IMG/VR virus record: IMGVR_UViG_3300028886_000034
Coordinates: 1-54,080 of that record
DNA length: 54,080 nucleotides
Direction: 5' to 3' (one strand)
Source: a virus
Lineage: Duplodnaviria; Heunggongvirae; Uroviricota; Caudoviricetes
The notes below the pieces were generated by a model. That model worked only from the letters and a program-made list of their open reading frames with translations. It searched no databases and was not told the DNA's origin. The translations under genes and the position numbers were made by a program. Below, piece after piece: positions 3,218 to 35,388 of the stretch; within the stretch, counting starts at the first letter, position 1; each line of letters starts with the position of its first letter.

Positions 3218-3232
3218 TATAATATCTCCTTT

Positions 3233-4150
3233 CTACATATTTGCTAATTCTTCATTTCCTTCGATTACTTCTGGAAACGGTACTGATGGTGCAAAATCAT
3301 CATCATTGAGTGCTATAGAATAACCGCAGTTATCATCAACAAGTGAAGTTCTGACATTATGCTTCAACTTCTTACTCAGGTCAATACCTTGCGAATAAAG
3401 AAATTCCAGAGCTCTATCAATAAACTCACACAAATTATTAACCTGCTTTAATGTCATATTATCACTTAACTCTGGCATTTTGTCAACAGGTTCTTCAAAT
3501 TCAAATTGAAGTTCTTTAGCAGAATCTTTTGATTCTTCTGCCAATCTTTTAGCTTTAATTCTGTCATACTCTTTAAACATACTCTCTTGGCTATCATACT
3601 TTTTCAATTTTAAAGTCCTTTTTTCTTTTGCTGTCTTAATTACCCCAAGAGTAGGATGATTTTCAAAATCCTTTAGACTATATTTATCATTTAAAAAGTC
3701 ATAAATTTTAACATATAGAATACCATCCACACAAGATGATGACCCAAGCGTCAAATAGAAAGGCAGTACATATTTATCTTTCACTAAATAATTATTTTTA
3801 ACATATTCATTTACTGACTCCCAAGCAGATTTTTCGTCTAACTCAGCAGCCTCGTTTCGTGTTACAAATACCATTTTACTAGACCCCATAGAAAAGGTAT
3901 TCCTATAATCTGATTTGCCCCAATCATATGTGGCAAAATCATCTCCACCAATAATCGCGTTATAATACTCCCTTAGTCTATAATATGAGATCAAATCATT
4001 TTTATTATTTACGAAAATTGATTTAAAGAAGCATGCTAAAAATGTACTTGTAAACGGAATAAACTTTACTCCATTCATATCCTGATAGGGGCTATTGTCA
4101 ATAATTTTGCAAATATTGCATTTGTGCTCAAAATCAAGAATAACAGGCAT
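3233..4150 (-). CDS. hypothetical protein (305 aa), N-terminal CNIC
   Basis: ORF track; SD AAGGA. Confidence 0.7.
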   Translation of the reverse strand: MPVILDFEHKCNICKIIDNSPYQDMNGVKFIPFTSTFLACFFKSIFVNNKNDLISYYRLREYYNAIIGGDDFATYDWGKSDYRNTFSMGSSKMVFVTRNEAAELDEKSAWESVNEYVKNNYLVKDKYVLPFYLTLGSSSCVDGILYVKIYDFLNDKYSLKDFENHPTLGVIKTAKEKRTLKLKKYDSQESMFKEYDRIKAKRLAEESKDSAKELQFEFEEPVDKMPELSDNMTLKQVNNLCEFIDRALEFLYSQGIDLSKKLKHNVRTSLVDDNCGYSIALNDDDFAPSVPFPEVIEGNEELANM

Positions 4151-29843: not shown

Positions 29844-30332
29844 TTAAGATACCTTCTTTCCGTATTGATTATCTGAAATCAAATATACTCCCAATACTTC
29901 ATCCCAATGTTTTTCTTGGTTTGGTTTGAATCTACCAAATTTGAATATAATATTATCATATTTCTTAAATTTGTCAAGAATATGATTATTAATGAGTTCT
30001 TCTTCAGTATAACCTGTATATATAACAAAATCATCTTTACAATCTTTAGATCTAAAATATGATATAAGCTCAATAACTTCTTCCACTTGTAATATAGGTT
30101 CTAATCCACCTATAACTATAGCTGAAGTAATTGGATTATTGATGTATCTGTTATAAAGTTGTTCTGAAGTAAGCTCATGCTGTTTTGAATTGTAGAGAGA
30201 ATGGTTCTGACAGATTGACCTGTCAAAACCACCCTCATCACAGCACTTAAAATCACAATAACATGTGCCTATAAAAAGTGATGGCTTCTTATAGTTCACA
30301 AAGTCTTCATCTTTAAGATTAGTTAATCTCAA
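29844..30332 (-). CDS. nrdG: anaerobic ribonucleotide reductase activating enzyme (radical SAM)
   Basis: EDFVNYKKPSLFI, CDFKC...CQN, AIVIGGLEP, VIYTGY, LISDNQY; adjacent to nrdD; TTG start. Confidence 0.9.
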   Translation of the reverse strand: MRLTNLKDEDFVNYKKPSLFIGTCYCDFKCCDEGGFDRSICQNHSLYNSKQHELTSEQLYNRYINNPITSAIVIGGLEPILQVEEVIELISYFRSKDCKDDFVIYTGYTEEELINNHILDKFKKYDNIIFKFGRFKPNQEKHWDEVLGVYLISDNQYGKKVS

Positions 30333-31738
30333 AAGGTTTCTCCCATATCATTAATTTTAAACCAATCTCTCAAAGCAAATTCAGCCTTTCTTTCTTTAGA
30401 GTATGATTTCTCTGGTGTTAAAAAGCCAACTATTCTCTGCCATGTGGTTTCTGTAGGATCTCCACAGATTGGACACCTGGACCCATAATATGCATGGTTA
30501 TTTTTACAGGTGCTAATCCTTACACATAAAGCAAAGTACTTTACGCCACTATCAGCAATATAGTTAATCAATCTCCATGCAGTATCAAAATCATGTATAG
30601 GTGCATCAACGTTTGCGTGCAGTATTGAACCGCCTGAACAGGCAGCATCTAATACCGCAGACACTCTGACTTTTTCTTGTAAAGTAGTCTTAACACCTAA
30701 TGGTATAAATTGATTTCCATACAGTGGTAACTCATAAGCTTCATCTGGGAAGAATATCTGATCTTTCTGCATAAGAACAGCCGCAGCTCTTTCTCCAGGA
30801 ATCTGTTCAATATTAATCATATAATCCTTATCTTTAGCAAATTCAGTCTTAACATCAATCATCTTCTGCATAAAATCTTTGGCAAACTGAAGTCCTTCAT
30901 CAGTATAGAAGGTATTACCAAATTCATCTTTATAGGTAAAACCAAACTTCTGAATTGCCTCATATATGCCAATAATACCAATAGTATTATACTGAGATTC
31001 CAAATGAAGTGCTCCACAAGAATAATTTGGAAGTAATCCTTTTTCAATATTTCTCTTTATAATGTGTCTAATTACATCCAATGTCTGTAAGCACAAAATA
31101 GTTTTTTCTTCTAATAATTTCATATACTCTTCTTTAGTATTGGTTTCATATGCAATTCTAGCAAGATTAATTGTATTAACCTTAATAGATCCTACTTCTA
31201 ATGCTGTGCCCCCAATGCTGTTAAAGAAGGGAGTATTAATGTCAGAGACCAGTCTACAGCAGTTACTGAGACTTGTCACATCCTCAGAAATATAGAAATT
31301 GCTGTCATTCCAACGCATATTATGCTGCACAGCAAACCTTGCAAATTCTTCATCTATAAACTTACCATCAACTCTAAGCAATGAAAAGGTTAATACTGGG
31401 AATGTCATCATATTAGTTTCTCTAATCTTTGACACAACTTTCATAAACGCCTTTTCATAATTAATAAACTCTTCCTCAAAATCAATCATATAACTTCCAT
31501 CAGGGAAGGTTTTATCTCCAAAAAGTGCTTCAAAATATTCTCTATCAAAAATAGTAAAATTTGTAAATGAACTTTGGTTCACTCTCAGGTACGGTTGGTT
31601 CAGTTTAAAAATTATGCGTTGGAACTCATTGTCTCTATAATATTCTTGACTTTTGGGGTAATACCCATTCTCACAATCTTTCTTCCAAAAATAAAATGAG
31701 TAAATTAAGAAATTGGGGAGTCCACAAGCTCCTGAACT
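30329..31738 (-). CDS. nrdD: anaerobic (class III) ribonucleotide reductase, exon 2
   Basis: Frame open from AGT TCA GGA GCT TGT GGA (SSGACGLPNF) to the stop at 30329; contains MMTFPV, LSNCCRL, IEQIPGE, CSGG, C..NH...CPICG, RIVGFL (glycyl-radical motif). Confidence 0.93.
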   Translation of the reverse strand, partial: SSGACGLPNFLIYSFYFWKKDCENGYYPKSQEYYRDNEFQRIIFKLNQPYLRVNQSSFTNFTIFDREYFEALFGDKTFPDGSYMIDFEEEFINYEKAFMKVVSKIRETNMMTFPVLTFSLLRVDGKFIDEEFARFAVQHNMRWNDSNFYISEDVTSLSNCCRLVSDINTPFFNSIGGTALEVGSIKVNTINLARIAYETNTKEEYMKLLEEKTILCLQTLDVIRHIIKRNIEKGLLPNYSCGALHLESQYNTIGIIGIYEAIQKFGFTYKDEFGNTFYTDEGLQFAKDFMQKMIDVKTEFAKDKDYMINIEQIPGERAAAVLMQKDQIFFPDEAYELPLYGNQFIPLGVKTTLQEKVRVSAVLDAACSGGSILHANVDAPIHDFDTAWRLINYIADSGVKYFALCVRISTCKNNHAYYGSRCPICGDPTETTWQRIVGFLTPEKSYSKERKAEFALRDWFKINDMGETF

Positions 31739-31962
31739 TTTTAGCTTAAAAAACTAAAAGACTATATCTTCAACCTAATATTTAGGCCCTTGCACTTCAA
31801 ACTTTAACTTTATGAAAGTTAGTTTTACTTCCTTTTAAAGGAATAGTCGTTGATCTTGTTTAATTATTATTAAACGTAGATGCTGATTAGGTTAATTAAC
31901 CTTTCCAGCAGTTCACAATTGAATTACAATATAGATTACTCTATAAAGTCGCAGTTTTATCC
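31739..31962 (-). ncRNA. group I intron (IA2-like, ORF-less, 224 nt) in nrdD
   Basis: P (GAACTGCTGGAAA), Q (AATCAGCA), R (TCAACGACTA), S (AAGATATAGTC); P2 TATAGA-GTAA-TCTATA; P7.1 TTCCTTTAAAAGGAA; P7.2; P8 GGCCTAA/TAGGTT; IGS AACTGCGA pairs with ligated exons TCGT|AGTT; removal restores in-frame SNR|SSGA. Confidence 0.92.
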
Positions 31963-32493
31963 ACGATTGCTCATATAGGACACGAATTCTCCAACAAAGT
32001 CTGTAAAGGTAGTTAAATGCTGTGGTGGTTGATGGTTAAAGTTGTCCTTAATAAAATACAACCCCTTCTCAGCCAGATCTTTTAAATCATAAGCAAAGCA
32101 GTAAGGCAAAAAGCTAGTACTGTAGGCATCATGATTATAAAAGTGCCCATCCCACTCATTCTTTAACCAGTCTCTAGCTACTTCAACACCATACTTCTTC
32201 TTTAACTCATAGAATATTTTATTAAATGATTCAAGCTTAAGTTCTGGTTTTCTCATTTCTACCATTAATGAGCAGATATCTTTAGTACTTGCATTAGCAT
32301 TACCATCTATAGATGCATCTGCTGTGGAGGTATTCTTATCAACAAAGTTATCTATAAATTCTGTATTATTTAATTGGCTATTACTCAAACCATTGAGTAT
32401 AGTTAATTTATTACCGTATTCTTTCTTTAATCCTTTAAGACATTCAACAAAGTCTTCATCTAACTTAATACTAATATCTAAGTATCCAGCCAT
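31963..32493 (-). CDS. nrdD: anaerobic ribonucleotide reductase, exon 1 (no ATP cone)
   Basis: DASIDGNANA, GHFYNHD...PYCFAYDL, PPQHL.TF...V.EFVSYMSNR; 177 codons up to the intron. Confidence 0.92.
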
Positions 32494-35313: not shown

Positions 35314-35388
35314 TGGCCTCGCCACTCAGAATCGAACTGAGATCATGGGTTTAGAAGACCCGGATTCTTTCCATTGAACTATGGCGAG
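35314..35388 (-). tRNA. tRNA-Arg (anticodon UCU), CCA encoded
   Basis: CTCGCCA/TGGCGAG acceptor stem, D arm GTTC/GAAT, anticodon loop CT-TCT-AA, T arm CTCAG-TTCGATT-CTGAG, G73-CCA; C27-A43 mismatch. Confidence 0.95.

Follow-up and report, generated by a model that had tools for sequence, protein, structure and literature searches.

RNA contigs place the 3' splice site of a jumbo phage nrdD group I intron after an adenosine

The window, a stretch of 54,080 nucleotides (nt) of DNA, is part of a 284,119-bp virus record (IMGVR_UViG_3300028886_000034) with direct terminal repeats, and is therefore assigned to a jumbo phage. The DNA and RNA runs that contain the region are bovine gut metagenomes. 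The nrdD gene lies on the minus strand and is divided into two exons by a short intron, which separates the Arg codon from the Ser codon within the conserved motif SNR^SSGAC (a caret marks a point of insertion or ligation). The intron begins with GGATAAAACTGCGA at G31962 and ends with GCTAAAA at A31739. The coordinates of all features are listed in Table 1.

Without splicing, the exon 1 reading frame contains 177 codons followed by GGA-TAA (32493–31957) and ends VSYMSNR-G-stop. The exon 2 frame is open from the 3' splice region through to 30329. Joining T31963 to A31738 produces a 646-residue open frame that reads SNR-SSGACG. The spliced protein is about 70–74% identical to full-length NrdD proteins of 640–646 residues, and the full-length homologues inspected, in the same size range, carry SNR[S/T]SGACG or a close variant at the junction. 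The closest intron-less relative, with 93% identity in exon 1, likewise contains SNR-SSGACG. An earlier reading of the window from its letters alone (the sequence-only reading) had placed this in-frame junction here, and the open frame and the spacing of the homologues bear it out. The Pfam NRDD domain is recorded on two loci (L003 and L004) that are identical to the window.

Four of the six metatranscriptome runs containing the gene were examined (X3, X4, X5, and X7, from at most three samples and at most three studies). They were compared with positions 30329–32493 as assembled contigs (Logan), and joints were listed at a threshold of 1%. In each run, the assembly graph contains two paths between the exon contigs. 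One path is an intron-bearing contig of 284 nt (31709–31992) that is identical to the window. In the other path, 31709–31738 is attached directly to 31963–31992 within a contig of 60 nt. The joint skips exactly 224 nt (31739–31962) with 0 mismatches, and no base can be assigned to both of its sides ('both' = 0). The joint is free of positional ambiguity, and the last intron base, termed omega, is therefore A31739; on the 5' side, the same joint fixes T31963 as the last base of exon 1. Ligation gives CGU^AGU in the RNA, and on the coding strand G31962 is the first and A31739 the last intron base.

The depths of the joined and intron-bearing paths are 95.8 and 25 in X3, 13.2 and 8.4 in X4, 77.3 and 20.2 in X5, and 12.6 and 7.9 in X7. 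The joined form is thus 1.6–3.8 times as deep as the intron-bearing form and accounts for at least 61–79% of the junction depth across the four runs, a fraction that represents a steady-state ratio and not a rate. Because the joined form is this abundant, a splicing bottleneck that regulates dNTP synthesis, one of the possibilities raised by the sequence-only reading, is disfavoured as a strong effect. No other joint is present in the four RNA runs at the 1% threshold, including none at G31737 or G31745.

Two more JGI metagenome assemblies, both independent (L003 and L004), also have A at base 31739, as do, without differences, the intron-bearing contigs of all four RNA runs. The outcomes that the sequence-only reading had named as counting against a terminal A, namely a G at this position or a join at 31744 or 31736, are all missing from the RNA contigs. 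Its proposal that the intron ends in A is thus upheld by the joint between 31963 and 31738, and the intron does lie within the span it gave, 31736–31965; that span includes a few exon bases, the true one being 31739–31962. Taken together, it is highly probable that the window carries a 224-nt, IA2-like nrdD intron of a 284-kb rumen jumbo phage that is spliced in vivo after A31739.

Two other readings of the locus were rejected, and a third lacks support. G31745 as omega would keep the frame, as the sequence-only reading had recognized, but it lies inside P9, would insert Leu-Lys, and is not seen as a joint. Split translation of two NrdD pieces would lack an in-frame start between the TAG at 31756–31754 and SSGACG. 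A-to-I editing of omega is unsupported, with no A-to-G difference at 31739 in the intron-bearing RNA contigs, in which a minority of edited copies would be hidden.

Table 1. Coordinates of the nrdD intron, its predicted elements, the surrounding genes, and the sibling introns
Feature	Position	Strand	Details
nrdD exon 1	31963..32493	minus	177 codons, ATG at 32493, ends AGC AAT CGT at T31963
nrdD exon 2	30329..31738	minus	469 codons + stop; starts AGT TCA GGA GCT TGT GGA (SSGACG)
Group I intron, IA2-like, ORF-less	31739..31962	minus	224 nt, first base G31962, last base A31739 (omega-A)
Internal guide sequence AACU^GCGA	31949..31956	minus	8 contiguous bp with both exons
P1	GCGA 31952-31949 with exon 1 UCGU 31966-31963	minus	Wobble U31963.G31952 at 5' splice site
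P10	AACU 31956-31953 with exon 2 AGUU 31738-31735	minus	4 bp, contiguous with P1
P4-P5 domain	31881..31910	minus	P4 31910-31906 with 31885-31881; P5 31901-31898 with 31893-31890
P6 hairpin	31858..31875	minus	6/7 pairs co-vary
P7 5' strand, A-[C]-GACUA	31844..31850	minus	Bulged C31849; invariant in 7/7 family members
P7.1 + P7.2 hairpins	31806..31843	minus	Covariation support; P7.1 31843-31838 with 31834-31829; P7.2 31820-31815 with 31811-31806
P7 3' strand, UAGUCU	31759..31764	minus	Family alignment
P9.0 + P9 hairpin	31740..31758	minus	Omega A31739 follows directly; P9 31756-31753 with 31742-31745
Unoccupied second UUCGU site	31982..31986	minus	19 nt upstream of used 5' splice site; matches GCGA guide
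nrdG (activating enzyme, radical-SAM type)	29844..30332	minus	4-nt overlap with nrdD; Pfam Fer4_12 on identical loci
Sibling intron	L026:4147-4372		94% identical; host nrdD 98% identical over first 132 residues
Sibling intron	L011:1299-1521		78% identical; same contig as L025
Four sibling introns in one nrdD	L035:1099-1350, 1487-1714, 2343-2580, 3220-3453		Same sequence also on a second contig, L036

The intron core is present on the minus strand with the IA2-like elements and the intact P7 described in the sequence-only reading. The 8-bp pairing of the guide with TCGT^AGTT, including the wobble at the 5' splice site, holds as well. P7 is composed of the pairs A31850-U31759 and G31848-C31760, followed by ACUA/UAGU, with C31849 bulged between the first two. 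The pair G31848-C31760 is predicted to be the guanosine-binding pair. P7.1 and P7.2, extra hairpins between P7 and P3', are an insertion of the subgroup IA type. In P9.0, U31758 pairs with A31740 and U31757 with A31741. In an alignment of the seven members of the intron family described below, helices P2 and P4–P8 are paired in 6–7 of the sequences; P4 and P7 are invariant, and P2, P5, P6, P7.1, P7.2, and P8 display compensatory changes. P3 is weaker: of its five pairs, one is standard in only three of the seven sequences. No endonuclease ORF is found within the 224 nt.

The element has a conserved core and a U.G pair at the 5' splice site, and in RNA it is precisely excised and its exons are ligated. 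These are features of group I introns, but its 3' splice site follows A31739 instead of an omega-G. A terminal omega-G is a near-universal hallmark and no strict requirement of the class, since introns published without it continue to be counted as group I.

Six sibling ORF-less introns, with core identities of 78–94%, occur in nrdD of related rumen phages. They were found by a blastn search of the intron against the fetched loci of relatives, and their ends were set by protein continuity and pairing. Each of them resembles the window intron in its U.G wobble at the 5' splice site and its in-frame NrdD junction, and they share with it an identical P7 and J8/7, the P1 loop, a P2 with an AGUAAU loop, and P7.1/P7.2. 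They differ in occupying five other nrdD sites (EFV^S, FMS^N, RIV^Y, NCC^R twice, and SIA^H) and in their terminal base, which a comparison with sister introns, as proposed in the sequence-only reading, reveals to be G in every sibling.

The guides of the siblings form a P1 of 4–5 bp and a P10 of 3–5 bp that are immediately adjacent, compared with 4 bp each in the window. The P10 complement matches exon 2 at each site: GAU/AUC, AAUUU/AGAUU, UUAG/CUAA, UAUAU/AUAUA, AUAUG/CAUAU, and, in the window, AACU/AGUU. P10 thus co-varies with exon 2 throughout, which supports both P10 and the 3' splice site of the window. The family is an ORF-less intron that occupies at least six nrdD sites, with its guide retuned at each.

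The G31848-C31760 pair, the bulged C31849, and J8/7 do not differ between the omega-A copy and the six copies with omega-G. The siblings L026, L011, and L035d end in GUCU-AA-[P9]-UU-G, whereas the window ends in GUCU-UU-[P9]-AA-A. Relative to these three, both P9.0 pairs of the window are flipped, amounting to two compensatory changes, and omega is changed from G to A. Omega directly follows P9.0/P9 in these four copies; in the remaining L035 copies it is preceded by 1 to about 13 additional bases. Since all six siblings have G at omega, parsimony points to the A as a recent, derived change that came without remodelling of the guanosine site. It appears to have arisen independently within its own intron family.

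The L026 sibling has the same GCGA guide and the same UCGU 5' exon end as the window intron, and is inserted after GAAUUCGU. Its insertion site is present but empty in the window, at the second UUCGU. The P10 complement is GAU in L026 and AACU in the window. The same intron thus sits at two nearby sites that share a 4-nt guide complement, with P10 retuned at each; two sites with the same guide match only 19 nt apart bear on how such introns move. The empty site could also act as a cryptic 5' splice site, in which case 19 more exon bases would be lost and the frame shifted. No joint from it is present in the RNA contigs.

An automated census of omega, built on tests of P1, P10, and the open frame, was run on about 126 IMG/VR cores that share the P7 motifs. 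It proved unreliable and was not used, and no frequency estimate is drawn from it. Among the controls, its unconstrained version miscalled L026, L035, and L003. In the constrained version, the top-ranked site for L026 and L025 was a spurious one downstream. Clean recovery was limited to the window, where the solution was unique, and three L035 copies.

The nrdD genes of the relatives contain further insertions. The L035 gene (L035:1099-3453; ENA ERZ28634106 scaffold_10940), whose exon 1 identity with the window is 90%, has a fifth intron of a different family near L035:1950 besides its four family members, and is an unusually intron-riddled phage gene. L026, the 98%-identical relative, has an in-frame LAGLIDADG intein (L026:2897-~4030) at SFLPY^CFAYD of NrdD (Pfam Intein_splicing, 1.4e-9), which starts with Cys and ends in VHN followed by Cys. 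Loose ends in RNA run X7 at window positions 32099 and 32102 match the ends of this intein, and therefore an intein-bearing variant co-occurs with the window strain. In L011 (L011:1299-1600), two nrdD introns lie about 31 nt apart, the family member after NCC^ and one of another type after EKIG^. In many relatives, a different and longer intron family with a 297-residue GIY-YIG ORF (L005, L006, L008, L009, and L013) occupies SNR[S/T]SG^A, 6 nt downstream of the window's site; its L005 and L008 copies end in G. Most exon-1-length NrdD fragments of the protein collection stop at this site, which therefore represents an insertion hot spot. None of 120 such fragments ended at SNR^S, most of their introns lying after SSG^.

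In group I chemistry, the terminal G re-occupies the guanosine site for exon ligation. The sequence-only reading was correct in calling omega-G nearly invariant, though natural omega-A introns have already been published. To our knowledge these are very few, comprising a Coxiella rRNA intron and the hexacoral ND5-717 intron. The 23S rRNA intron Cbu.L1917 of Coxiella burnetii reportedly has a terminal nucleotide other than G (Raghavan et al. 2007). The base is said to be A, and the intron to splice both in vivo and in vitro and to belong to a different subgroup from the window's intron. Cbu.L1917 thereby resembles the window's intron as a natural bacterial-type group I intron with a non-G end, and differs from it in its rRNA host gene.

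The introns of T4 in nrdD (sunY), td, and nrdB also lie in phage genes of nucleotide metabolism and have an IA2-type core with P7.1/P7.2. They end in G, carry or once carried homing-endonuclease ORFs, and sit at other sites. The host gene of sunY is the same as that of the window's intron (PMC1995217; PMC2988022, PMC1865063). A megablast search detected no sequence similarity of the window's gene to the T4 introns.

In hexacoral ND5-717, the last intron nucleotide is omega-A, unlike the omega-G of most group I introns, and it has been reasoned that neither hydrolysis at the 3' splice site nor circularisation may be able to proceed with omega-A (PMC8146996). A review covers what omega-G does in these two reactions (PMC3679873). 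Like the window's intron, ND5-717 lies in a protein-coding gene, and its ligated mRNA has been observed (PMC8146996). ND5-717 differs in being a giant organellar intron, obligatory and inherited vertically, with whole genes inside it and a presumed dependence on host factors (PMC3679873); the window's intron is a minimal phage intron of 224 nt with mobile siblings.

The feature that the window's intron shares with Cbu.L1917 and ND5-717 is a terminal A at the used 3' splice site, with correctly ligated exons. It is an RNA-supported case of a rare, already published omega-A variant. No paper describing omega-A for a phage intron was found, a weak negative given that the Greek letter is not searchable. 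The case is notable for a junction seen directly in environmental RNA, an unchanged G-binding pair, and a 94%-identical sibling that ends in G. With these two small natural RNAs, the choice of a 3' splice site without omega-G becomes directly testable.

The first step of splicing would be conventional. The GCGA of the guide would pair with the exon UCGU, forming the U31963.G31952 wobble, and free guanosine, the presumed cofactor, would attack after U31963 from the unchanged G31848-C31760 site. In the second step, the 3' splice site may be placed by helices more than by recognition of the omega base. One of these is P9.0/P9, in which the last base of the 3' strand immediately precedes omega, and the other is the 4-bp P10 stacked on P1; P9.0 and P10 probably position the 3' splice site. 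A31739 would occupy the nucleoside site suboptimally, and the 3'-OH of U31963 would attack the A31739-A31738 bond to give CGU-AGU. In this scheme we infer catalysis by the RNA itself, independence from a protein helper, and a kinetic cost of omega-A.

Several points weigh against this explanation. The RNA evidence consists of assembled contigs, so rare alternative junctions, for example at G31737, could be lost, and RNA libraries can contain DNA. The absence of a joined DNA form rests on contig and protein collections, not on reads. The Rfam RF00028 match (31972–31737, model positions 1–253, E 5e-11, the same in a whole-genome search) has a score of 47.3 bits, which is 2.7 bits under the gathering threshold of 50; the P7.1/P7.2 insertion is misaligned by this model. 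In the Tetrahymena intron, changing omega from G to A with an intact G-C site strongly impairs exon ligation, and the efficient use of omega-A here is therefore mechanistically unexplained.

It is very unlikely that the joined 60-mers derive from an intron-less DNA allele in the RNA libraries or from template switching by reverse transcriptase. Contigs alone do not show transcription, and several strains co-occur, as the loose intein ends in X7 illustrate. Against such an allele, the junction 34-mer and 24-mer are both missing from IMG/VR and JGI metagenome contigs, and the DNA contigs of 281–284 kb run through the intron. No uninterrupted, near-identical NrdD is present in a protein set of 5.8 billion clusters, which contains no full-length NrdD above 74% identity; the exon 2 ORF itself is found there on 6 contigs. 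Many bases flanking the junction are different in the nearest existing intron-less relatives, whereas the joint contigs match the window with 0 mismatches. Template switching is opposed by the lack of microhomology at the joint and by its exact coincidence with the junction predicted from P1 and P10. An exact 20-mer of the intron 3' core had no match in IMG/VR, where the window's own record possibly lies outside the set searched.

A canonical omega at G31737 has next to no probability. Infernal does align the final consensus G of RF00028 with G31737, and if exon 1 ended at G31961, where G-C would replace the U.G pair, the two sites would be in frame and would also remove 224 nt. Splicing in this way would, however, yield CGTGGTTCA junctions, reading CGU GGU UCA (SNR-G-SGACG). 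The RNA contigs read CGT^AGTTCA and not CGTGG^TTCA; the joint is unambiguous, and the G31961/G31737 pair is refuted. It is further opposed by the inspected homologues, which have S or T and never G at that residue, and by the U.G wobble used at the 5' splice site by all six siblings. The placement of G31737 by Infernal is an effect of the model consensus and no evidence for a splice site. Used with the 5' splice site after T31963, G31737 would frameshift nrdD to a stop at residue 198, in agreement with the sequence-only reading. Covariance models or rules that an intron ends in G would misplace the boundary of this intron by 2 nt, as Infernal did, and would predict a frameshifted nrdD.

Dependence on a helper, such as a maturase- or chaperone-type protein of the phage or the host, with naked RNA performing step 1 and little or no ligation, seems rather unlikely. 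The 224-nt ORF-less intron has no candidate maturase in or beside it, its 94%-identical sibling is fully canonical, and P9.0 and P10 are strong enough for site alignment. The Coxiella omega-A intron reportedly self-splices in vitro. In favour of a helper, the G-binding pair is the same as in the omega-G siblings, so that A should dock poorly, and 21–39% of the junction depth is still intron-bearing. The omega-A intron ND5-717 is also classed among host-factor-dependent obligatory introns (PMC3679873, PMC8146996). A natural omega-A ribozyme and a helper-dependent intron, both suggested by the sequence-only reading, are both compatible with the observed RNA splicing.

A more speculative proposal, which we regard as doubtful, is that minimal phage IA2 introns have omega-A through selection or recurrence and do not merely tolerate it as a defect. 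If so, the 3' splice site would be set by P9.0 and P10 in place of G docking. The window's intron and its 94%-identical omega-G sibling, with their identical G site, would then be a matched pair supplied by nature, from which it would follow that ribozymes of this class can dispense with omega-G. Omega-A would also suppress 3'-splice-site hydrolysis, circularisation, and reverse splicing into mRNA, making ligation effectively one-way and raising the yield of NrdD message.

The nrdD gene is followed by nrdG and preceded upstream by a 69-residue glutaredoxin/NrdH-like ORF and a RecA/UvsX-like gene. A megablast search of the nrdD gene against 50,697 phage records gave no match. The best blastn matches among known phages, to jumbo Staphylococcus phages, reach 73–75% identity over 103 nt. 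A tRNA gene, probably tRNA-Arg(UCU), is located on the minus strand at window positions 35317–35388 (Rfam, 56.8 bits) and has the anticodon loop CUUCUAA.

The same phage genome contains two more RF00028 matches, of 59 and 43.8 bits, at G000:C1:156031-~157560 on the plus strand and ~211300-212972 on the minus strand (L018 and L020). Each is followed by a TnpB-like ORF of 400–437 residues with OrfB_IS605, Cas12f1-like_TNB, and HTH_OrfB_IS605 domains. These elements are IStron-like and lie within genes of unknown family. Weaker group I matches of 31.8 and 27.5 bits at G000:C1:139951-140219 and ~141097-141415 (locus L021) flank a 305-residue frame with a Gp23 major-capsid Pfam match, and the capsid gene is seemingly split by two introns.

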